Positions 35,305 through 46,372 of a DNA stretch of 64,000 nucleotides are shown piece by piece (positions within the stretch are counted from its first letter, which is position 1; each line of letters opens with the position of its first letter). Made by a program: the position numbers and the translations under genes. The stretch is from Thermodesulfobacteriota bacterium. GTDB lineage: Bacteria > Desulfobacterota_D > UBA1144 > Nemesobacterales > JAJCZQ01. The notes below the pieces were generated by a model, which was not told the DNA's origin, made no database searches, and was given only the letters and a program-made list of their open reading frames with translations. Where the stretch lies: contig OZ244044.1 of NCBI GenBank assembly GCA_965215275.1, positions 160,001 to 224,000 on the forward strand. Reading direction: 5' to 3'.

Positions 35305-37986
35305 TCATACGAACAATGGATTTGATTTATTAACATCTATTTTAAACTGCTTCTTGGCTTTATTCAGTAATTTCTTATCGATAATTCCCTTTTTATAGAG
35401 CTCTGCCAGGCTCGAGTACGCTATATGTTCCGCATTTACCTCAAAATGGTACCTGAGCATTTCTCTGTTGTCGCTTCTGCCAAAACCGTCCGTGCCAAGC
35501 GTTACGAGCGGCTTGGGAAACCACTTTGAGACGGTATAGGGCACTGCTTTTATATAATCACACACTGCAACGTATATACCGCTGTCGTTATTATCGAAAC
35601 ATCTTTCGATGTAGTTCTTTTTACGCTTTTTCCCCGCGTTCAGGATGTTCCATCTGTCCGTGTCCTGCGCATCTTTATAGAGTTCCTTGTAGCTCGTGAC
35701 GCTCCAGACGTCCGTGGTGATCCCGTATTGCGTCTCCAGTATTTTAGAAGCCCTTATCACTTCATTTAAAACGCCGCCACTTCCCAGAAGGTTTACGTGC
35801 CTTTCAGGGTCTCTTTCCGGACTTTCTTTAAAGCGGTACATACCTTTGATGATCCCTTCCTCTACGCCTTCCGGCATTGCCGGCTGTTCATATATTTCAT
35901 TCAGCAGCGTTACGTAATAGAAAACGTCTTCATACTCCATGTACATACGCCTGATACCGTCCTTGATGATAACCGCAAGTTCGTAAGCGTAAGCAGGATC
36001 ATACGCTATTATCGTAGGATAGGAAAAAGCGTAATGATGGCTGTTGCCATCCTGATGCTGCAGTCCCTCGCCGGCAAACGAACTCCTGCCGGAAGTGCAT
36101 CCGATAAAGAACCCTTTACATTTCATATCCGACCCCGCCCAGATAAGGTCCCCTACCCTCTGAAAGCCGAACATCGAATAGAACGTGAAAAAAGGGATGG
36201 TATTTACACCATGGGTCGCATAGGCGGTGCCGGCAGCTATGAACGATGAGAATGCCCCTGCTTCGGTTATTCCTTCTTCCAGTATCTGTCCATCCGTTGC
36301 TTCTTTGTAATAAAGGAAAGTATCAGAATCCACTGGCTCGTAAACCTGTCCCACATGGGAATATATACCTGCCTGTCTGAAAAGGGATTCCATACCGAAC
36401 GACCTTGCTTCATCAGGGATGATAGGTACTATCAGCTTTCCGATCTCCTTGTCCCTCAGGAGTTTTGAAAGCAGTCTTACATAAGCCATGGTGGTTGCTG
36501 CACCTCTGCCACCGGAACCTTTGTAGAATTCGTCAAATACCGTCTCATCATATCCTTTTATGGGCTGTCCCAGCACTTTTCTTGCAGGCAGATAGCCTCC
36601 GAGTTTTTCCCTTTGCTGTTTTAGATATTCGACTTCAGGACTGTCATCGTCCGGTTTGTAGAACGGTGCTCTGGCAACGTCTTCATCTGATATTGGTATA
36701 CTGAAACGCGTTCTGAACTCCTTAAGTTCCTCTTCGTTCAGTTTTTTCTGATTATGAGTAACGTTCCTGCCTTCTCCAGCCTCTCCCAGTCCATATCCCT
36801 TTATCGTTTTTGCAAGTATGACCGTTGGCTCTCCTTTATGTCCGGTGGCCTCTTTATATGCCGCATACACCTTTTCACTGTCATGTCCGCCTCTTCTCAG
36901 CTTTTCAAGTTCGTAGTCCGAATACGTTCTCACGAGGTCTTTCAGCTTCGGATGGGTCCCGAAAAAATGTTCCCTTATGTATGCACCGTCTTCAACTATG
37001 TACTTCTGATAGTCACCGTCCACGGCACTTTCCATCCTTTGAACGAGCAGTCCATCTTCATCTTTTTCCAAAAGAGGGTCCCAGTCGTCACCCCATATCA
37101 GCTTGATGACGTTCCACCCTGCGCCTCTGAATATCCTTTCGAGCTCCTGTATTATCTTTCCATTTCCTCTGACGGGACCGTCCAGTCTTTGCAGATTGCA
37201 GTTCACTACGAATATCAGATTGTCAAGACTTTCTCTTGACGCAAGGGTTATTGCCCCAAGGGATTCAGGTTCATCGGTCTCACCATCTCCCATGAAAACC
37301 CAGACCTTGCTGTCTATATTCTTTTTTAATCCCCTGTCTTCAAGATATCTGTTGAACCTTGCCTGATAGATCGCCATGATCGGAGAAAGTCCCATGGAGA
37401 CGGTGGGGATCTCCCAGAAATCCGGCATAAGCCATGGATGTGGATATGAGGACAGCCCGGCACCATGGGTCAGTTCTTTTCTGTAGTTCCTGATCTGCTT
37501 GACCGTGATCCTTCCCTCAAGGAAAGCACGGGCGTATATACCCGGAGCGGCATGCCCTTGAAAATAAACTATATCTCCATCCTGATTTTCGTTACTGGCT
37601 TTCAGGAAGTGATGGAACGCCACTTCGAACAAAGTAGCACAGGAAGCGTAAGTGGAGATATGACCTCCTATACCTTCATCGTTCCTGTTGGCCCTCACGA
37701 CCATTGCCATCGCGTTCCACCTTATGATGTTCCTGATCCTTCGCTCTATATCTGTATTCCCTGGATACTTGGGCTGTTTACTGAAGGGAATTGTATTTAT
37801 ATAAGGCGTGTTGGCGGTATAAGGTACTGCTATGCCCGCTTTTTGCGAGTATATCTGAAGATTTCTCAGTAACTTTTGGACCCTGGCGTGTCCAGAGGTC
37901 TTGAGAACGGCCTCCAGGGATTCTATCCACTCCCTGTCTTCTGTTTCTTCTTGATGTTCCACACTTTCGTCTTTTTGGTATGACAT
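35305..37986 (-). CDS. aceE: Pyruvate dehydrogenase E1, homodimeric type
   Basis: GGHISTYAS, SSYPHP, GDGETDEPES, NLQRLDGPVRGN, GEGLQHQDG; start at 37986 or 37992. Confidence 0.95.
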   Translation of the reverse strand: MSYQKDESVEHQEETEDREWIESLEAVLKTSGHARVQKLLRNLQIYSQKAGIAVPYTANTPYINTIPFSKQPKYPGNTDIERRIRNIIRWNAMAMVVRANRNDEGIGGHISTYASCATLFEVAFHHFLKASNENQDGDIVYFQGHAAPGIYARAFLEGRITVKQIRNYRKELTHGAGLSSYPHPWLMPDFWEIPTVSMGLSPIMAIYQARFNRYLEDRGLKKNIDSKVWVFMGDGETDEPESLGAITLASRESLDNLIFVVNCNLQRLDGPVRGNGKIIQELERIFRGAGWNVIKLIWGDDWDPLLEKDEDGLLVQRMESAVDGDYQKYIVEDGAYIREHFFGTHPKLKDLVRTYSDYELEKLRRGGHDSEKVYAAYKEATGHKGEPTVILAKTIKGYGLGEAGEGRNVTHNQKKLNEEELKEFRTRFSIPISDEDVARAPFYKPDDDSPEVEYLKQQREKLGGYLPARKVLGQPIKGYDETVFDEFYKGSGGRGAATTMAYVRLLSKLLRDKEIGKLIVPIIPDEARSFGMESLFRQAGIYSHVGQVYEPVDSDTFLYYKEATDGQILEEGITEAGAFSSFIAAGTAYATHGVNTIPFFTFYSMFGFQRVGDLIWAGSDMKCKGFFIGCTSGRSSFAGEGLQHQDGNSHHYAFSYPTIIAYDPAYAYELAVIIKDGIRRMYMEYEDVFYYVTLLNEIYEQPAMPEGVEEGIIKGMYRFKESPERDPERHVNLLGSGGVLNEVIRASKILETQYGITTDVWSVTSYKELYKDAQDTDRWNILNAGKKRKKNYIERCFDNNDSGIYVAVCDYIKAVPYTVSKWFPKPLVTLGTDGFGRSDNREMLRYHFEVNAEHIAYSSLAELYKKGIIDKKLLNKAKKQFKIDVNKSNPLFV

Positions 37987-38063
37987 GGACATTTCTCTTC
38001 AGCAATTTTAATCAATAGTGAAAAAAGTAAAAGGTTTATAATGAACGTAATATAGTTATATAA

Positions 38064-39376
38064 GGGAATTATAGTGAATAGTTGACAGGAAGAAAAATTG
38101 AAAACGGGTCAGAAAATGGGTAATATTATAGCATGGTTAGAACGATCACAAGAACTGTAAAGGCAGATAGTGTTTTTCATAAAAGGCTGGATGAATTCTT
38201 ACAACAGCTTACCGACCTGTATAACGGAGCTTTATATCACAGATTAAGATCTTATGACTGGTATGAAAAAACTATCTCTAAATACGAACAGTTTAACGAA
38301 CTAACTGAGGTCCGAGAGCAAGACAAGGAATTTGAAAAGTTTAATGTTGTAGCTCAAAGAAGCGTTCTGGAAAGACTGGATAATGCATATAGTCCTTATT
38401 TGAACTATTTAAAGAATAAAAAAGCAGGAAAGAAGGTGGGCAGACCAAAATACAAAGGTCCAAACAGACCTGTCAGAAGTTTTGAAACAAACAATTATAA
38501 AAACATTGAAAAGATCGGCAGAAGAACGTATTTAACGATAAAGGGACTTGGCAGATTATCTTTCAAAGGTTCTATGCCTGATGGAGTTGTTTTAAAACAA
38601 CCTAAAACAACAATAAGGATAGTTAAAACTGCTATAAGGATAAAGATCCAGTTTCTATGTGAGTTTACCAGCGAAAAGAAAAGACCTATGGACAGGTCCA
38701 TAGGGATCGATCTTGGAATTATAAACAGAATGGCTTTTTCAGATGGAACTAAAATACCAGGAGTTCGGTTGAACAGAAAGGAACTGAAAAGAAAGCAGAG
38801 AATTGTTTCAAGAGCGGTAAAAGGTTCTGACAGCAGAAAGAAGAAAGTTTTATCGTTAGCAAAGGAATGGGAACGAACTACCGATCGTGAAAATAACGCT
38901 ATACACAGAATGACTACCGAAATAGTAAAAAAGAACAATCATATAAAGTTGGAGGATTTAAAGATCCAAAATATGGTAAAAAATCCTTATTTAGCAAGAA
39001 GTGTAACGGAACAGCAATGGGGGAAGATTAAAACCCAACTTGACTACAAAGCCGAGATAGCTGGAGGCAAGTTAGTTTTAGTTAATTCCCATTATACAAC
39101 AATGACCTGTTCTGAATGCGGAAAGGTAAATCCAAAACTGCCTTTGTCTGAAAGAGTATTTAACTGTATATATTGCGGTTATTCAGAAGACAGGGATATA
39201 AATGCAGGTAAAAATATCAATACTCTTAATGAAGGAGACTTCATATCGGGTGGGAATAAGGTAGAAATACTCCCGATGAGTGCTAAGAGTATCAGATCAA
39301 AAGAGAACAGGGATAGAGGAACTCTGCACTCAGAACAGTACGAGTAGTTGTTTGTCAACTATTCACTATAATTCCC
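38064..39376 (+). mobile_element. Non-autonomous TIR element carrying tnpB (IS1595-like ends)
   Basis: Perfect 24-bp TIR GGGAATTATAGTGAATAGTTGACA at 38064-38087 and 39353-39376; flanking 8-mers TTATATAA/TTACATAA (7/8 identical). Confidence 0.85.
38133..39347 (+). CDS. tnpB: RNA-guided endonuclease TnpB family protein
   Basis: RuvC-I GIDLG, RuvC-II LEDL, CSECG..CIYCG zinc finger, RuvC-III DRDINA. Confidence 0.92.
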   Translation: MVRTITRTVKADSVFHKRLDEFLQQLTDLYNGALYHRLRSYDWYEKTISKYEQFNELTEVREQDKEFEKFNVVAQRSVLERLDNAYSPYLNYLKNKKAGKKVGRPKYKGPNRPVRSFETNNYKNIEKIGRRTYLTIKGLGRLSFKGSMPDGVVLKQPKTTIRIVKTAIRIKIQFLCEFTSEKKRPMDRSIGIDLGIINRMAFSDGTKIPGVRLNRKELKRKQRIVSRAVKGSDSRKKKVLSLAKEWERTTDRENNAIHRMTTEIVKKNNHIKLEDLKIQNMVKNPYLARSVTEQQWGKIKTQLDYKAEIAGGKLVLVNSHYTTMTCSECGKVNPKLPLSERVFNCIYCGYSEDRDINAGKNINTLNEGDFISGGNKVEILPMSAKSIRSKENRDRGTLHSEQYE

Positions 39377-39466
39377 TTACATAAGTAATGCCAATGGCAG
39401 AAAAACCATGTAATATATACCTGATTCATTATTGACCAGAATAATGATACATATGATATTAATCCT

Positions 39467-40897
39467 ATGAAAAAATTCGACCTGACTATTATCGGTTCCG
39501 GACCGGGTGGGTATATAGCAGGAATTCGTGCTGCACAGCTTGGTATGAACGTTGCGGTAATTGAACGTGACAAACCTGGTGGGGTCTGTCTGAACTGGGG
39601 CTGTATACCTTCTAAAGCGATACTTAAATGTGCAGAAGTTTACAACTATATTATCAGTTCGGAAAATTACGGTATTAAAGCGGACGGGGTTTCGTACGAC
39701 TACTCAAAAGTAGTAGATAAAAGCCAAAATGCATCATCGACCTTGAACAAAGGTGTTGAGTTCCTGCTTAAAAAGAACAACGTCACCCTGTTCAAAGGGG
39801 TCGGAAAGATCGTAAAGGAAGATCAGATAGCCGTTCTTAACAAGGAAAGCACTGAGATCCATTCGGATAAGGTCCTTATAGCTACCGGCTCGGTACCAAG
39901 AACGATCCCCGGTCTGGAAATAGACGGCAAAATAGTTATGACCAGTGATGAAGCGATCAGACACCGCGAAGTTCCCAGATCCGTTGTAATTATAGGCGGT
40001 GGTTATATAGGAGTGGAATTTGCCTACGTTTATAACTCTTTCGGCAGTAAAGTTACGATCGTTGAAATGGAAAAGAACATTATTCCAGGGGCTGATGAGG
40101 AAGTCGCACAGGAACTGCGGAAGATCTTTAAAAAACAAGGGATAGAGGTACTTACTGAAACTAAATACAGGTCTGTCAAAAAGCAGAAGACATCCGCTAC
40201 CGTAACGGTCGAGAACGTACGCTCAGGTGAGGAAAAAAATATAAAAGCTTCGTTGGTGTTGGTTGCAATTGGGCGGAGAGCAGTTGCAAATGCTTCCCCG
40301 TCTTCTTTCAGTTATTACGGAAAGAAGGAAAGTCTTGGGCTTGAAGAGATCGGCGTTGAGCTCAGTGATGACGGTTTTATCAAGGTCGATAAGGATTATA
40401 TGACGACTAAAAACAATATCTATGCCATTGGCGACGTCATAGGTCCCCCTCTGCTGGCACATAAAGCCTCCGAAGAAGGTGTTGCGGCGGTAGAGATCAT
40501 GAACGGGATCAAAAGCAAGGTTCACTATAACAAGATACCGGGCTGCGTTTATTGTCAGCCCGAAGTAAGTACCCTCGGTCTTACCGAAAAACAGGTAAAG
40601 GAACAGGGTTTTGACTACACGGTCGGGAAATTTCCGTTCAAGGCCGCAGGAAAAGCCGTTGCCGTAGGTGATACAGATGGATTTGTAAAGATCCTGTCTG
40701 ACAAAAGGACCGGCGAGATACTCGGAGCTCATATCATAGGACATGGAGCCACGGAACTGATAGCAGAACTTGGCCTGGCGTCTTCCCTTGAAGCCACGCC
40801 CCTTGAGATCTCATACACCTCTCATGCTCACCCTACTCTTTCTGAAGCGATCATGGAAGCTGCACTGGGAGCGTTAGGAAGAACGCGCAATTTCTGA
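39467..40897 (+). CDS. lpdA: Dihydrolipoamide dehydrogenase (second copy)
   Basis: GSGPGGY, GGVCLNWGCIPSK, HAHPTLSE. Confidence 0.93.
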   Translation: MKKFDLTIIGSGPGGYIAGIRAAQLGMNVAVIERDKPGGVCLNWGCIPSKAILKCAEVYNYIISSENYGIKADGVSYDYSKVVDKSQNASSTLNKGVEFLLKKNNVTLFKGVGKIVKEDQIAVLNKESTEIHSDKVLIATGSVPRTIPGLEIDGKIVMTSDEAIRHREVPRSVVIIGGGYIGVEFAYVYNSFGSKVTIVEMEKNIIPGADEEVAQELRKIFKKQGIEVLTETKYRSVKKQKTSATVTVENVRSGEEKNIKASLVLVAIGRRAVANASPSSFSYYGKKESLGLEEIGVELSDDGFIKVDKDYMTTKNNIYAIGDVIGPPLLAHKASEEGVAAVEIMNGIKSKVHYNKIPGCVYCQPEVSTLGLTEKQVKEQGFDYTVGKFPFKAAGKAVAVGDTDGFVKILSDKRTGEILGAHIIGHGATELIAELGLASSLEATPLEISYTSHAHPTLSEAIMEAALGALGRTRNF

Positions 40898-40926
40898 ACA
40901 TCCTGCCGTTCAAGTCGTTTACTGCC

Positions 40927-41601
40927 ATGAGCACGCTTGATATATACCACCTTGGAACGATCAGTTACAAGGATGCCATGGATATACAGTTCAAGCTGCT
41001 CGAAAAGAGGATCAATAAAGAGATAAACGACTCTCTTTTACTGCTTGAGCATCCATCAACGATCACAATTGGCAGAAGCGGTAAAAGATCCAATCTTCTT
41101 ATTTCCGACAGTTATTTAAAAAGCAGAAATATAGAATTTTTTGAAACGAACAGAGGTGGGGACATAACGTTCCATGGTCCGGGACAGATCGTATGCTACC
41201 CGATCATAGACCTGGATGATCGCACAAAGGACGTTCATAAGTATATAAGGGATTTGGAAGAAATAATTATAGAGACCCTTAAGGAATTTGACGTTGAAGG
41301 GCAGAGGATCGATGGACTGACCGGAGTATGGACGAAGGGGTGCAAGGTCGCGTCTATTGGAGTGGGTATAAGAAGATGGACCACCTATCATGGGTTTGCC
41401 ATTAATGTAAATACTGACCTTGATCTTTTTGATCTTATAATCCCATGTGGAATTGCTGACGTTGAAATGACCTCTATAAAACGCTGTAATGACCTTGAAG
41501 ACAAAATAGAGATGGATTCCGTCTGTAAGATCATTATTGAAAAGTTCATTAACGAGTTTAAGTATCTTGAAACAGAGGAAAAAACGTTAGTTACTGACTG
41601 A
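40927..41601 (+). CDS. lipB: Lipoyl(octanoyl) transferase
   Basis: LLEHP..TIGR, RGGDITFHGPGQ, KVASIG, HGFAIN, IIPCG. Confidence 0.95.
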   Translation: MSTLDIYHLGTISYKDAMDIQFKLLEKRINKEINDSLLLLEHPSTITIGRSGKRSNLLISDSYLKSRNIEFFETNRGGDITFHGPGQIVCYPIIDLDDRTKDVHKYIRDLEEIIIETLKEFDVEGQRIDGLTGVWTKGCKVASIGVGIRRWTTYHGFAINVNTDLDLFDLIIPCGIADVEMTSIKRCNDLEDKIEMDSVCKIIIEKFINEFKYLETEEKTLVTD

Positions 41602-41697
41602 AACGACCCTGTCTAAGGCAAATTTCTCTTCCCTGTGCTCTCTATACTTCCTGCACAAATAATCTAACCTATACATACTAATGAAAGCACATTGTTG

Positions 41698-42360
41698 TCA
41701 CGGTATTTGTGAACCTAACTGTCCTGTGTCAGCGTCGACCGCTATGCAAGGGTTGCTCGTAGGACTGAAGAAGGACCAAACGCCGGTGCAATCAGCCATA
41801 TTCAAAGCATTTAGCTGTGTTCCATCATCATCCAGTACCGGTATAGGAAGGTTTGCAGAGTCAGATGCTTCTTGTACAAGAACATAAGGACACTTAATAA
41901 TGTCCGCCATTTCCGGGGCATTGGGACGACCTGACCAAAAACCACGCCATTCTTTTTCATTCATATTGTTTTGTACAAGGTTGTATATTCCGGGATTGAT
42001 AAATTCACCAGGGCGGGATTCAACGCTGGTCTGGTAAAACAGCACCATGGAATTTCTTCCAGGATTTCCTTTACTATCTTGCTGATTGGAACCGATGTAT
42101 CCTACTTGTCTAAAATGGTGTCGCCTGCCATTATCGTCAATGAATGTGCTTGTAGCCAGTATGTTGTTTTCGTTAAGCGTTACCTCTTCCATAACTTCAA
42201 AAGCACATATTGGCGTATTATTTGCCCCTAATGTTGTATAATATCCAACCCACTCCACTGGGGCTGGAGAACTGTCCTTACTATCACATGCGAATATAGT
42301 TGCTCCAGCAAGTAGAATTCCTGCAAATACTGAACTAATCTTTTTGTAATGTCGTAAAAT
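41698..42360 (-). CDS. Hypothetical lipoprotein with probable ATT start
   Basis: Frame of the 41698-42258 ORF stays open upstream and encodes LRHYKKISSVFAGILLAGATIFA-C; AGGAGA lies 6 nt before ATT 42360; no in-frame ATG upstream. Confidence 0.6.
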   Translation of the reverse strand: MLRHYKKISSVFAGILLAGATIFACDSKDSSPAPVEWVGYYTTLGANNTPICAFEVMEEVTLNENNILATSTFIDDNGRRHHFRQVGYIGSNQQDSKGNPGRNSMVLFYQTSVESRPGEFINPGIYNLVQNNMNEKEWRGFWSGRPNAPEMADIIKCPYVLVQEASDSANLPIPVLDDDGTQLNALNMADCTGVWSFFSPTSNPCIAVDADTGQLGSQIP

Positions 42361-42417
42361 AATATTTCTCCTGATAGATTTTCTCCAAATTTATTACAGA
42401 GGATCATATTTGTCAAT

Positions 42418-43706
42418 GGGAACTATATACTTAAGTATCCAGTGGATACTAAAAGTTCTCTTTGACGAGTCATAGACCAGTTCCTGTCCCCAACCCCTCT
42501 GCAGTCTCCCCGTCCAATCACCCCTTTCCCTGAGGCTATAATTTGTTTTATTCCAGTTTCCAACTGGTTAAATGCAGCATTTAAGTCAGCATTAACTTCA
42601 TAACCGCAAGATGTACACTTAAATCTGGATTGCGATCTTCTGTTATCAGGAGATCTGTGTCCGCATTCAGAACAGGTTTGACTGGTATATGCAGCTGGAA
42701 CTTCTTCAGTAGCATTACACTTGTAATCCAGCATCCTTTTCATATCAAACCAGCCAGTAGCACGAATGTTCCTGTTCATCTTGCGAAAGTTCTTCCATTT
42801 CTTTCTGGCTGTCATCCCTTGTGTATTAAGTCTCTCAAGTACAGGAACATCATAAAGATCGGAGATCTTTCTTGTAACCTGATGTCTCCAGTCCTTCTGT
42901 CTGTTTGCCAGCTTCCTATGAAGTTTCTGTAACCTTTCCTTAGTAATTCTCCACCTGTTACTTCTCTCTTCCTGACGTGCAAGTTTCTTTTGGTATCTGC
43001 GTATCTTTGCTTCTGTAAGTTCATCATCAGATAACTTAAAAACCTGTCCGTCAGACAGCGTAACCTGTCTTGAATTCCTGTCCATTGCTACAACTCTTAC
43101 TTCTTTCTTTTCCTTTTTAGTTTCATCTATCTCATAGGTAAGGTACGCATACCACTTACCGCATTCCTTCCTTATCCTGCCAGAAAGGAACTTTCCATCA
43201 GGATATGGATTCTTACCTGCCAACCTGAACCATCCAACCTTTAAAATACGGAGCCACTTATTATCTGACAGTTTAGCTGACTGATAATTTACCGGGAATG
43301 AAGGAGTGGTTTTTAATTTACTCTTGAATTTAGGTTGTCCCGATTTTCCATCCCTGTATCTCTTACAGGCATTTGTAAGGTCCAGTAAATAATGCTGAAG
43401 TATGTAAGCAGATGCTTCTTTCAGAAAGTAGTTCTTTTCTTCTTTCTTCAATTCTCTCAAATCGTTACCTAAACTCTCATGACCATAACCATCATTAAAA
43501 TCATTATCCTTTAAATTTCCCACGAATTGATTCCAGATAAACCTGCAACAGCCAGCAGTAGAGGAAAGTTTATGAAACTTCTCCCTGTTGTTTGATCTCA
43601 ACCTCTGCCTTACCGTTCTTATTGTCTTACCTTCTTTCATATTTGTAATTTTACCTTATTCCCTTGCTTTTTTTAAGTAGTTTGGATAGTTAAGTATATA
43701 GTCCCC
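42418..43706 (-). mobile_element. Non-autonomous TIR element carrying tnpB (IS1595-like ends)
   Basis: 24-bp TIRs GGGAACTATATACTTAAGTATCCA (42418-42441) and, on the minus strand, GGGGACTATATACTTAACTATCCA (43683-43706), 22/24 identical; perfect 8-bp TSD TTGTCAAT at 42410-42417 and 43707-43714. Confidence 0.9.
42423..43640 (-). CDS. tnpB: RNA-guided endonuclease TnpB family protein
   Basis: GCCRFIWN, PKFKSK, RuvC-I AMDRN, RuvC-II LERL, TSQTCSECG..FKCTSCG, RuvC-III NADLNAA. Confidence 0.9.
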   Translation of the reverse strand: MKEGKTIRTVRQRLRSNNREKFHKLSSTAGCCRFIWNQFVGNLKDNDFNDGYGHESLGNDLRELKKEEKNYFLKEASAYILQHYLLDLTNACKRYRDGKSGQPKFKSKLKTTPSFPVNYQSAKLSDNKWLRILKVGWFRLAGKNPYPDGKFLSGRIRKECGKWYAYLTYEIDETKKEKKEVRVVAMDRNSRQVTLSDGQVFKLSDDELTEAKIRRYQKKLARQEERSNRWRITKERLQKLHRKLANRQKDWRHQVTRKISDLYDVPVLERLNTQGMTARKKWKNFRKMNRNIRATGWFDMKRMLDYKCNATEEVPAAYTSQTCSECGHRSPDNRRSQSRFKCTSCGYEVNADLNAAFNQLETGIKQIIASGKGVIGRGDCRGVGDRNWSMTRQRELLVSTGYLSI

Positions 43707-43918
43707 TTGTCAATTAAGGGATCTGCCGTATGTTCAATATTCAATCGCAGATGTTTTAATATGAATAACTTGATAAGTTAAGTAATTGTTTTCAGGAGAA
43801 AGAGTTTTTCCGAACACGAGCCTCAAGGACATTACACGGTAACGCACCCGTTCTCCTCAACGAACTTATAAAAGAAAACCAGGTTGTAATTCTATCTTGT
43901 GTTTTGCTGTCAATATTA

Positions 43919-46372
43919 TCAGGTCTTTATCCGAGACCTAATCTTCCTTCTTATCACAACAGATACAGGTATAAGCATCAGCGATGCCACTGCTGTGAGC
44001 ATATCAGGAACGGCTTCGCTCTGACCGGAGACCGCACATCCTCCTCCGCCTGTATCACTACCTGATGACGTTGGTCTTTGTGTCGGTGGTCTTGTTGTTG
44101 GTGGGTCTGTCGGTCCTGGCGGCGTAGTTGTTACCCTGATCGTAAATCTCAGCTCATCCGTATCTCCATCTTCGTCCGTTACCTTATATGTATAACTGCC
44201 AGAAGATACAGCAGTCGGTGTTCCGCTGATAACTCTGTCAGTTTCACTGAAAGCAAGTCCAGCAGGTAAACCAGTAGCAGGTAAAAGAGGGGACAGGCTG
44301 TAGGTCAGTTCTCCATTCCCTGCTGTTGCCTCAGGCAGTGTTTCTTTTATTGCAGTTCCCGGCACGTAATTCTTATCTGGTATGGTCCAGTTGTTAAACG
44401 TCGGCGTGTCCCCAGACATATGACCATAGACCTTTATGTTCCATGAGTGTAAGGTCCCCGTACCTGCAATTGAATTGTTAGTTATCTTCAAGGTCCACTC
44501 TCCAGCAGGGTCCGTTCCTAAGTGATTGGCTAAACCAAAACGATGTTCCCTGCCTGTGTACTTAAAGTCGTCTACAGTAAGAGATCCGTCAGATAAATGT
44601 GATAACGCTTCTGATGCATATTCCTCAGTGAGTTTTGACACGGTAGTATCGTCAGGAGAAGTTATTTCTATATCTAAAAAAGGAAAGAAAGGATGGGTAA
44701 AATTGATACCTATCTCTATAAATTCCGTAAATACCTCAGTGTCTGGTATATCTATATCAGGTACTGTCAGTGTGAAAACAACTGAAACGTCTTCTGCGTT
44801 TTCCCCCGTTGTGAAGTCTGGTATAACCGTATTGATATTACCCGAGGAAACCGTCACGGGTTTCATTTGCGGTGGAACGTTGGTCCAGCTTTCTGCAAGT
44901 TCCACTGCAGCTGCAGCGTCTACTGTGCCAAAAGTATCTACTGTGCCAAAACCGAACTTTGGATTGTAAAAATAATACTCTGAATCAGAACCGTATTGAA
45001 GTGCTACTCTCTTCCATTCTTGGGTATCACCGGAACGGGAGCCCTGGCTGGCTGAACCTGCCAAGATCAGTTTCAGGTCTCGCCAGCTAAGATCACTGTT
45101 TACCTCTCTCATCAGTGCTGCAATTCCTGAAACGACCGCTGCTGAATTTGACGTTCCAGGGAACTCAAAAGTATAACCGTCGTTATTGTCGGTAGTTACA
45201 ATACCGGAACCCGGTGCACATACCCATAGATTGTATCCCTCTTCTGAAAAGGAACTCTTAGTAACAGCGAGCGCATCCCTATCGATCTCTGATGAACATA
45301 CGGTAGTTACTGCGTAGTAGTTGGAATACTCATCAAAATTAGCCTGGTCTGATCCTTCATGTCCGTCCCCTGCCGCCCATACGTAAAACACCCCTTTACC
45401 ACCAAATCCTTCTCTTATACCCGTTCTCACCCCTTCTTCCCACTCTGATGAAGCCTCTGTAAGAACGGGAAGGTCCTTCGGTCCCCAGTTGTTGACCGAT
45501 ACAGCAGTTATATCCTTATTACGGACCATGGCGTCCTTTGCATTAGCATCACTGAAGTTACCAGCTAAATTATAACTGTAGATGTTTGCCTCAGGTGCTA
45601 CACCTCTTACTCCAAGGCTGTTATCACCCACTGCTGCTATAATGCCAGCTACACGTGTTCCACGACCACTGAAAGGACTGTACAGATCACCATTCCCAGA
45701 GTAATCATGAGAAAGTGTGGTATCTACATTGTCAGCAAGGTCCTCATGGTCTGTGTCCATACCATGATCTACCACCGCTACGTTAATCCCAGCACCAAAT
45801 ACGGCATCATCCCAGACATCTTCTATGTTTATGTCTATATCTTGTCTGGCGGAGGTTTGGAATACCTTATCGCCACCTAATATTACATCAACCGCTGGAG
45901 ATTCCAGATACCACTGACAGCCGTATAAGGGATCATTTGGAAAATTGGTAGTAATAATTGAACAGGTTTCAAAGAGTTGATTAGAATCAGCTAATTGAAC
46001 TTGAACTCGATAGGATGTAGCACCACTGCTTCCTACAACGATATAGTACGTTCCCCGTCTGAGGTGAGTTTGTATAGATATATTTCCTAGTAGCCTTTCA
46101 TCACTTGGGTCCACTACTTCAGTAGTACTTGCTATCAGATCATCATTACTGTCACATACCTGTAGGCTGTATTCCTGATCATTGGAGAAGGGGAAGGTTA
46201 CCAATATATCTGCAATAAAATCTCCATTTATGTTTATCTGAAAGTAATGCGGATCAGCACCGGCAGCTAAACTTCCATTGTGTGTTGGTCCTTGCACTCT
46301 CAACGTAGCTTCGGTCGTTGCACTGGAGTCACAGTTGTTAATGCTGGTCTTACCATATGCACTAATGGACAC
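43919..46372 (-). CDS. Surface-anchored kexin/furin-like S8 protein (catalytic His replaced) with N-terminal PPC-like domain, P-domain, one Ig-like repeat and Gly-Cys-TM-basic anchor; true N-terminus lies upstream across a poly-C frameshift
   Basis: DPLYGCQWYL, VAVVDHG, GRGTRVAG, GTSNSA, DLSWRDLKLILA, GTDPAGEWTLKI, GGGGCAVS..LIPVSVVIRRKIR. Confidence 0.85.
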   Translation of the reverse strand: MSISAYGKTSINNCDSSATTEATLRVQGPTHNGSLAAGADPHYFQININGDFIADILVTFPFSNDQEYSLQVCDSNDDLIASTTEVVDPSDERLLGNISIQTHLRRGTYYIVVGSSGATSYRVQVQLADSNQLFETCSIITTNFPNDPLYGCQWYLESPAVDVILGGDKVFQTSARQDIDINIEDVWDDAVFGAGINVAVVDHGMDTDHEDLADNVDTTLSHDYSGNGDLYSPFSGRGTRVAGIIAAVGDNSLGVRGVAPEANIYSYNLAGNFSDANAKDAMVRNKDITAVSVNNWGPKDLPVLTEASSEWEEGVRTGIREGFGGKGVFYVWAAGDGHEGSDQANFDEYSNYYAVTTVCSSEIDRDALAVTKSSFSEEGYNLWVCAPGSGIVTTDNNDGYTFEFPGTSNSAAVVSGIAALMREVNSDLSWRDLKLILAGSASQGSRSGDTQEWKRVALQYGSDSEYYFYNPKFGFGTVDTFGTVDAAAAVELAESWTNVPPQMKPVTVSSGNINTVIPDFTTGENAEDVSVVFTLTVPDIDIPDTEVFTEFIEIGINFTHPFFPFLDIEITSPDDTTVSKLTEEYASEALSHLSDGSLTVDDFKYTGREHRFGLANHLGTDPAGEWTLKITNNSIAGTGTLHSWNIKVYGHMSGDTPTFNNWTIPDKNYVPGTAIKETLPEATAGNGELTYSLSPLLPATGLPAGLAFSETDRVISGTPTAVSSGSYTYKVTDEDGDTDELRFTIRVTTTPPGPTDPPTTRPPTQRPTSSGSDTGGGGCAVSGQSEAVPDMLTAVASLMLIPVSVVIRRKIRSRIKT

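Follow-up and report, generated by a model that had tools for sequence, protein, structure and literature searches.

In the window, that is, the whole stretch of 64,000 nucleotides of contig OZ244044.1 (Thermodesulfobacteriota bacterium) that was analysed, positions 42410 to 43714 hold a tnpB element of 1.3 kb, which is a non-autonomous cassette with IS1595-family ends. The tnpB gene is the sole gene inside it according to open reading frame (ORF) and end-pair reading, and since the element has no DDE transposase gene of its own, it represents a derivative of IS1595 and not a full insertion sequence (IS). The explanation that we consider probable is that this transposase-less cassette is moved in trans, and that TnpB, with a guide RNA whose scaffold ends at the tip of the terminal inverted repeat (TIR) downstream of tnpB, cuts the vacant site, after which repair recopies the element into it.

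The two TIRs agree at 22 of 24 positions and form the longest inverted repeat within 41500-44600. They are flanked by an exact 8-bp direct repeat, TTGTCAAT, a match (8/8) that would arise by chance at this fixed register with a probability of about 2e-5, given the base composition of the genome. Both features had been described in a first-pass annotation of this DNA and were borne out. In the host genome (1.99 Mb, single contig) two further copies of the element were found, with ~96% nucleotide identity and identical boundaries, and with perfect 8-bp target-site duplications (TSDs) of their own (AAATGTTA and ATATAGAA, read in the tnpB direction); the three copies lie at unrelated sites, and each of them (3/3) has a perfect TSD. 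The genome-wide TIR search that the annotation had proposed retrieved 261 ends with the TIR profile (score ≥12, both strands), compared with 12 when one strand of a shuffled genome was searched, and the other copies share the boundaries of this one rather than having different ones. Perfect 8-bp TSDs were observed in 19/48 candidate end pairs.

Many of these end pairs enclose an IS1595 transposase of 307-326 aa, often together with passenger genes. The same TIR family surrounds at least 11 transposase elements, and the genome contains 28 matches to PF12762 (IS1595 transposase). Among the 11 elements compared, the best agreement with the three copies was that of the left end of C1:1516018-1519071 (23/24, 24/24 and 23/24 positions). 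The 326-aa transposase of this element scores 193.8 bits with NF033547 (cut-off 75) and has a CxxC-CxxC finger as well as the acidic motifs of the IS1595 family. The cassette shows two marks of IS1595, TIRs shared with IS1595 transposase elements and an AT-rich TSD of 8 bp. The TIR motif resembles that of ISNwi ends, a candidate subgroup. A total of 24 NF040570 matches in the host genome correspond to 22 tnpB loci; leaving out the degraded locus C1:800857, the 21 elements examined all have the TIR family at both ends, and they fall into lineages A (3, including the 42410..43714 element), B (9) and C (9). Perfect TSDs are present in 10/21.

The 405-aa product of the cassette was recognised by NF040570 (219.8 bits, cut-off 100), with scores below the IS200- and IS607-specific cut-offs (82 bits with the IS607-type NF038280, cut-off 350). 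Its RuvC residues D187 (43080-43082), E269 (42834-42836) and D352 (42585-42587) are intact, in agreement with the annotation, and together with the C4 zinc finger C323/C326/C342/C345 they are invariant in a 21-row alignment. Among 70 proteins of the clade, the catalytic D, E and D are kept in 70, 69 and 67, respectively. An AlphaFold model (mean predicted local distance difference test 78, predicted template modelling score 0.46) gave ISDra2 TnpB and ISFba1 TnpB as top Foldseek matches, with E values of 4e-21 and 2e-20. The RuvC-I motif AMDRN is indeed present, but to call it atypical, as had been done, was an overstatement: D-R-N occurs in 35/70 clade proteins and D-x-N in 70/70, so the motif is normal there. 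The one rare residue is an Ala two residues before the RuvC-I Asp, seen in 2/70, both of lineage A. The ratio of nonsynonymous to synonymous substitutions (dN/dS), estimated without formal test, was 0.18 for the tnpB copies A1/A2 and 0.16-0.36 over 10 pairs. Altogether, the cassette encodes an intact-looking TnpB for which RNA-guided cleavage is predicted. The position of the tnpB stop codon inside the TIR, also noted in the annotation, holds for this copy (TAG, 42423-42425) and is not a conserved trait, the 400-aa TnpB of copy A2 ending five codons earlier, before the TIR.

In the ISDra2 system, the guide begins after position -1 of the RNA, and a pseudoknot is formed between -5U to -3C and -103A to -105G (PMC10097598). 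In the elements studied here, the tip of the downstream TIR has its complement in a 6-mer that lies 89-145 nt before the element end, within the loop closed by a 5-bp stem that shows covariation. When the register of this pseudoknot was set by the upstream stem arm alone, pairs at positions -1 to -4 were formed in 93, 87, 93 and 92 of 93 elements, and 79 and 81 elements had those at -5 and -6, respectively. Of the cells at positions -4 to -6, 240/279 held Watson-Crick pairs vs 166 ± 6 in shuffled sets (5000 shuffles), and the type of pair varied, with A-U, C-G and G-C at -5 and A-U and G-C at -4. The upstream TIR tip, which is untranscribed, provided an internal control: the downstream tip fitted better in 36 elements and worse in 5, with 37 ties. 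With one element per genome, the corresponding values were 93/111 vs 77 for the pairs, with p 0.002 in each of 300 draws, and ~13:2 for the tips. In a 33-genome alignment, 94.8% of cells were paired, a level that 0/500 shuffles reached, and slid controls gave at most 60%.

In the 42410..43714 copy, the two predicted strands, 42530-42526 and 42422-42418, form five pairs, with the loop ~113 nt upstream of the tip. One of the two TIR mismatches sits in the predicted pseudoknot and keeps the U-A pair (-4) at the tnpB-downstream tip, and the inner part of the downstream TIR closes a hairpin. As the TIR tip pairs in the register of the ISDra2 pseudoknot, the guide would be composed of the TSD and its flank; these pairings indicate that the scaffold likely ends at the TIR tip and that the guide likely starts at TSD base 1. 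An alternative placement, in which a variable stretch inside the element would be the guide and would aim at other TIRs, was rejected, since the TIR and this stretch together make up a hairpin and the pseudoknot reaches the tip. No Rfam match was obtained in 37800-44000.

A guide starting at TSD base 1 implies that a target-adjacent motif (TAM) should be found immediately beyond the upstream TSD. Among 35 elements of the GTDB genomes described below (TSD with at most one mismatch), a purine was present directly outside the upstream TSD in 34 (G in 28), and at the mirror position downstream in 10/35; on a per-genome basis, the upstream purine was found in 19/20 genomes. In contrast with these values, transposase-element ends of relatives (31 ends from 49 loci) had G in 3/16 and 1/15. 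The comparisons made in the host genome have to be read bearing in mind that the flank motifs were derived from the same data used for testing and that related elements are not independent: lineage B has G in 8/9 elements (9 with a one-base shift in B5) vs 11/119 control ends (p 4e-7) and 3/24 B-like ends, and TG in 7/9 (8 with the B5 shift), the clearest TAM-like motif in this genome; lineage C has WWA (W, A or T) in 7/9 vs 30/119 control ends (p 0.002); and lineage A has WTA in 3/3, with ATA in the truncated relative at C1:1013763. The possibility that TSD base 1 forms part of the TAM was discarded from its composition (A 21, T 8 and C 6 of 35). At a filled left junction, the candidate TAM is followed by eight bases that match the predicted guide, and 10/21 host elements show all eight. 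For the three predicted lineage-A guides, no site with the motif and at least 11 guide bases was found in the host genome.

The same arrangement was found in other genomes. A GTDB alignment scan gave 502 confirmed loci, the best 79 of which, in 37 genomes, were analysed with a TIR profile trained on the host genome. These genomes are titled Gamma- or Alphaproteobacteria, Caldilineaceae, Rhodothermaceae, Dadabacteria or Thermodesulfobacteriota, and several bear names of sponge symbionts. A TIR was located downstream of tnpB in 74/79 loci and at both ends in 59/79, the 59 two-ended elements all spanning 1235-1565 bp. A perfect TSD of 8 bp was present in 31/59, compared with 2 at 7 bp and 0 at 5, 6, 9, 10 and 11 bp. 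Transposase matches were found in 4/79 loci, all of them outside the element, and IS1595 transposase matches in 5/5 clade-bearing GTDB genomes tested and in 5/5 genomes of the same order, where a downstream TIR was found at 19/23 tnpB loci. An autonomous element combining an IS1595 transposase with tnpB was sought among the 21 host and 79 GTDB loci and not found. The 80 metagenome loci recovered encode distant TnpBs, none with the TIR of this element, and among the 25 best matches listed, no plasmid relative exceeded 32% identity. Phylogenetic trees separate lineage A plus the GTDB clade from lineages B/C plus same-order relatives (Shimodaira-Hasegawa-like approximate likelihood ratio test 99-100). 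Classical TnpBs fall between both groups, and a tree joining them was rejected (approximately unbiased test, p 0.015, with 35 chosen rows). The existence of two separate groups points to two captures of TnpB by IS1595 ends, although long branches and the quickness of the search call for caution.

Table 1. Features of the tnpB cassette and its flanks (window positions; all on the minus strand).
Feature	Position	Strand	Basis and remarks
tnpB-downstream TIR, IS1595-type	42418..42441	-	inverted-repeat comparison; genome TIR profile
tnpB-upstream TIR	43683..43706	-	23/24 identity with left end of transposase element C1:1516018-1519071
Downstream TSD copy, 8 bp, ATTGACAA on this strand	42410..42417	-	sequence; predicted guide positions 1-8, from the pseudoknot register
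Upstream TSD copy, 8 bp	43707..43714	-	sequence
tnpB, 405 aa	42423..43640	-	NF040570, Pfam, alignment, predicted fold
Candidate tnpB promoter, TTAAAA-N17-TAAAAT	43648..43676	-	consensus match only, 9/12; 7 nt before ATG
Candidate TAM, TTA	43715..43717	-	WTA in 3/3 lineage-A copies; weak for lineage A
Predicted omegaRNA scaffold, ~120 nt, overlapping the tnpB 3' end	42418..42536	-	covariation (33-genome alignment; 93 elements)
Scaffold stem 1	42536-42520	-	loop holds pseudoknot 5' strand GGGAA, 42530-42526
Predicted pseudoknot 3' strand, last 5 nt of downstream TIR	42422-42418	-	covariation
Predicted 16-nt guide, TSD plus 8 nt of flank	42402..42417	-	16-nt length taken from ISDra2 (PMC10097598)
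Promoter-like TTGACA-N17-TAAATT of downstream lipoprotein gene	42388..42416	-	host sequence; -35 box falls in the TSD

According to the explanation that we favour, the cassette would be moved in trans by the product of another chromosomal locus, an IS1595 DDE transposase, as the shared ends and the TSD length suggest, the 326-aa transposase of C1:1516018-1519071 being the best candidate. The tnpB transcript, presumably initiated at the candidate promoter TTAAAA-N17-TAAAAT, would continue through the downstream TIR, whose tip would form the pseudoknot. The target of the resulting complex would be the TAM followed by a single TSD copy and the flank, an arrangement expected solely where the site is vacant or has been restored by precise excision. 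A filled site would be spared: its left junction offers the TAM with eight matches only, below the ~12 TAM-proximal guide matches that cutting by ISDra2 TnpB requires (PMC10097598), and its right junction would have no TAM. Once the element had left, TnpB would cut the vacated site, and repair from a filled sister copy would restore the element, as in the model published for IS200/IS605 (PMC10691335). One IS1595 member forms circles joined via the 8-bp repeat (PMC12561309), a type of exit that would leave a one-TSD site in the donor. Under this mechanism only insertions beside a TAM would persist, which would account for a one-sided flank bias in elements whose transposase does not pick the TAM.

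Several observations weigh against this explanation. In the one-per-genome alignment the double changes affect mostly one pair (12 at -5 and 1 at -4), with 6/33 unpaired at -5, and the fold of the single sequence was no better than that of shuffles (z -0.46). The motif of lineage A is weak, since A at -1 was also present in 15/17 non-tnpB ends with A-like TIRs; it may simply agree with a preference of the transposase itself, and WTA in 3/3 copies compared with 4/16 non-tnpB ends gives p ~0.04 by hand count. Copy A3 is frameshifted, 11/21 host tnpB elements have no perfect TSD, and the exit of IS1595 from the donor site has been little studied. The search for an empty site suggested by the annotation yielded no empty allele in four relatives and eight public sequencing runs: in the runs, no joint across the element was detected, and in the DNA of the relatives, a match was obtained in 1/4 (the same-genus genome G001), limited to the lipoprotein side. 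The orthologous region of G001 has neither the element nor the S8 protease gene, but its identity is only ~70% and its arrangement differs, a divergence that precludes proof of an empty site at base level. Contigs of runs X5 and X7 bridge an element junction, indicating that those strains carry the element at the same site.

Another reading, which we regard as unlikely, is that TnpB mainly binds the TAM and the 8-bp TSD at the left junction, where it would prevent excision, or else guide or help the transposase, the bias then arising at or after insertion. Each element with a perfect TSD does carry the TAM and eight guide matches at its own left junction, and selection of the site during insertion would lead to a bias of 34/35 more readily than subsequent loss by itself; on the other hand, the catalytic residues are kept clade-wide, and they would be needless for binding alone.

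A slightly lower probability was assigned to the idea that tnpB is a passive passenger and the omegaRNA a relic, the flank bias being a target preference of a transposase subfamily. The frequency of A at -1 in A-like TIRs with or without tnpB is in line with this idea, as are the many other passenger genes held by IS1595 shells in the host genome and the existence of broken copies (A3, B8 and the remnants). It does not agree with a bias that is one-sided and lineage-specific within a single genome (TG in B, WWA in C, WTA in A) and that is missing from the B-like control ends, nor with the closer correspondence of the pseudoknot strand to the downstream tip than to the upstream one (36:5), nor with a dN/dS of ~0.2.

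It is more doubtful still that an active and guided TnpB is retained for what it does to DNA elsewhere, killing cells with the vacant allele, or incoming DNA that carries it, in the manner of a population-level drive. The same definition of the target would fit, this option is contemplated in the Discussion of PMC10691335, and the presence of the clade in several phyla suggests frequent DNA exchange; drive and retention cannot be separated by sequence alone, and a drive would be compatible with the explanation that we favour. Finally, that an ordinary IS1341/IS605-type tnpB element landed in or beside an IS1595 element is hardly credible, since, despite the classical IS605-type ends of seven distant TnpB relatives (by eye), no IS605-type right end exists between tnpB and the TIR, the ORF and the scaffold enter the TIR, the same build recurs in 59/79 loci, and the element has no Y1 or serine TnpA nearby. 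In the host genome, NF033518 (IS607 TnpA) gave no match, and the sole Y1 transposase-family match was weak (26 bits, in a 274-aa frame at C1:1883440-1883715, ~48 kb from the nearest tnpB).

TnpB proteins in DDE/TIR elements moved in trans have already been published. Six DDE-associated branches with inverted repeats, DDE-1 to DDE-6, were described by Altae-Tran in 2023, together with solo TnpBs whose movement occurs in trans (PMC10691335), and they share with the cassette a TnpB inside inverted terminal repeats, a 3' end at most 250 bp from the element end, and solo copies with the same ends. In the DDE-5 branch, a TA motif precedes the transposon end by 8 bp (PMC10691335 supplement), which corresponds to the geometry observed here and to the motif of lineage A; this branch differs in being plasmid-enriched and in having a rearranged catalytic site (PMC10691335), compared with the canonical D/E/D of this clade. 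The carriers named for DDE-associated TnpBs are IS630 (PMC10691335) and, in a 2026 review, ISL2, IS630 and IS1031 (PMC13565253); in the text covered, IS1595 is not named as a carrier and appears only in a profile list. The passages of PMC10691335 covered describe no pairing of the pseudoknot with the TIR and no guide register. The literature search yielded no account of TnpB carried by IS1595 ends; it did not extend to Fig. 4 and the additional files of Altae-Tran, and an overlap with one of the six branches is possible.

The cassette shares the TnpB fold, the D/E/D residues, the C4 finger and, as predicted, an omegaRNA over the gene 3' end with the IS200/IS605 (ISDra2) and IS1341 solo elements. 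The predicted pseudoknot at -5 to -3 and a guide taken from the flank are common to ISDra2 (PMC10097598), and the presumed movement of a solo element in trans to IS1341. IS200/IS605 elements differ in that they have no TIR and no TSD, their ends being hairpins and their transposase a Y1 TnpA, whereas TIR and TSD are present here; moreover, their TnpA itself picks the TAM motif, whereas here the transposase does not, and the first eight bases of the predicted guide occur a second time at the left junction. IS607 elements (serine recombinase TnpA, no TIR or TSD) are likewise of another type. Members of the IS1595 family have TIRs starting with GG, AT-rich TSDs of 8 bp and passenger genes (PMC8101967, PMC12561309, PMC7835479), as does the cassette, and a DDE transposase with an N-terminal zinc finger, as do its partner elements; the cassette differs from them in having no transposase and in an end that doubles as predicted RNA structure. 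The eukaryotic Fanzor1 and Fanzor2 of TIR transposons are also RNA-guided nucleases in DDE transposons with TSDs, in which the 5' TSD lies in the TAM and the 3' TSD in the scaffold, Fanzor1 having lost the pseudoknot (PMC13565253). Unlike them, the cassette keeps the predicted pseudoknot, has its candidate TAM outside the TSD, and contributes the TSD as predicted guide bases 1-8.

We tentatively propose that IS1595 is a further natural carrier of TnpB, that it captured this protein at least twice given that a TIR tip starting with GGGA suits the omegaRNA pseudoknot nearly unchanged, that its transposase pays no heed to a TAM although almost all copies that survive have one, and that the activity of TnpB, in homing or in guarding the left junction, decides which insertions persist; the odds of this being correct are in our opinion appreciable, although somewhat short of even. 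It has been pointed out that TnpB is rare in prokaryotic DDE transposons, and the question was raised of how a TAM-bound nuclease coexists with a loose-target transposase and TSDs (PMC13565253). If the proposal is true, these elements would constitute a natural experiment that could show what makes transposons retain TnpB, the 8-bp TSD being a sub-threshold self-target. The family supplies many matched cases in which the controls are built in: within a single genome, the same ends occur both with tnpB and without it, the three lineages differ in their flank motifs, and the start of the predicted guide is defined. The retention or homing model becomes testable separately from transposase specificity. 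If the proposal is true, the elements would also represent a cross-phylum source of compact nucleases of ~400 aa, whose TAMs, 1-3 nt long, purine-ending and readable from the genome, may be unusually short.

Regarding the host sequence next to the insertion, the annotation had remarked that the TSD contains the -35 hexamer of a promoter, TTGACA-N17-TAAATT, for the downstream lipoprotein gene, and that the insertion leaves this promoter intact. The statement is true (10/12 consensus matches) but incidental: promoter-like sites in the region are as frequent as expected by chance (6 vs 4.9 ± 2.0 in shuffles), and, as every TSD keeps both flanks, the preservation of the promoter carries no signal. 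In G001, TTGAAA-N18-TAAACT was seen by eye at a similar place before the orthologous lipoprotein gene, which lends weak support to a host promoter. A targeting of -35 boxes by the element was rejected, TTGACA being found in 1/21 TSDs of host tnpB elements and in 0/35 TSDs of relatives.

As to the promoter of tnpB itself, the position of the candidate would give a nearly leaderless mRNA, and the lineage B genes, read by eye, show a promoter spacing like that of lineage A. At the tnpB 5' ends of both lineages, a -10-like box stands 5-7 nt before the start codon and no ribosome-binding site was seen; from these sequences, the transcripts of both lineages are likely leaderless. At the other end, a gene in the same direction starts at most 250 nt past the tnpB-downstream end in 15/21 elements, and a purely convergent gene is found in 0/21; the next gene may need, or tolerate, read-through from the element.

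Other elements with these ends were observed in the host genome. A lineage-B cassette is located in the window at 38064-39376 on the plus strand (404-aa TnpB, TIRs 24/24, TSD 7/8). Four lineage-C elements (C1:82022, 772121, 1094941 and 1695227) have intact ends, unrelated flanks and no TSD, which suggests that rearrangement or deletion has taken place between copies, and their guides would no longer match one vacant site. At C1:1013763 and C1:1545315 there are remains of further lineage-A-like tnpB cassettes, a 5' part and a 3' part, respectively, with TIRs. IS1595 elements with passengers are found at C1:675417-678070, 1002026-1005187, 1304051-1307389, 1516018-1519071, 1532715-1540173 and 1812584-1815955, and several of the passenger genes resemble, in their N-termini, DNA methyltransferase or restriction genes. 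Pairs of TIR-family ends 245-550 bp long, similar to miniature inverted-repeat transposable elements, are also present.

On the tnpB-upstream side, the cassette is followed by a gene, absent at this place in G001, for an S8 protease with a P-domain and an immunoglobulin (Ig) domain (43919-46372, minus strand); the C-terminal region of the protease is part of an extensive repeat family, with over 100 BLAST pieces genome-wide. On the opposite side, the lipoprotein gene (41698-42360, minus strand) encodes a signal peptide with its Cys intact and has no Pfam or NCBIfam match. Its start codon is ATT, that of the G001 orthologue is ATG, and in run X7 a base change at 42358 turns the start into ATG.

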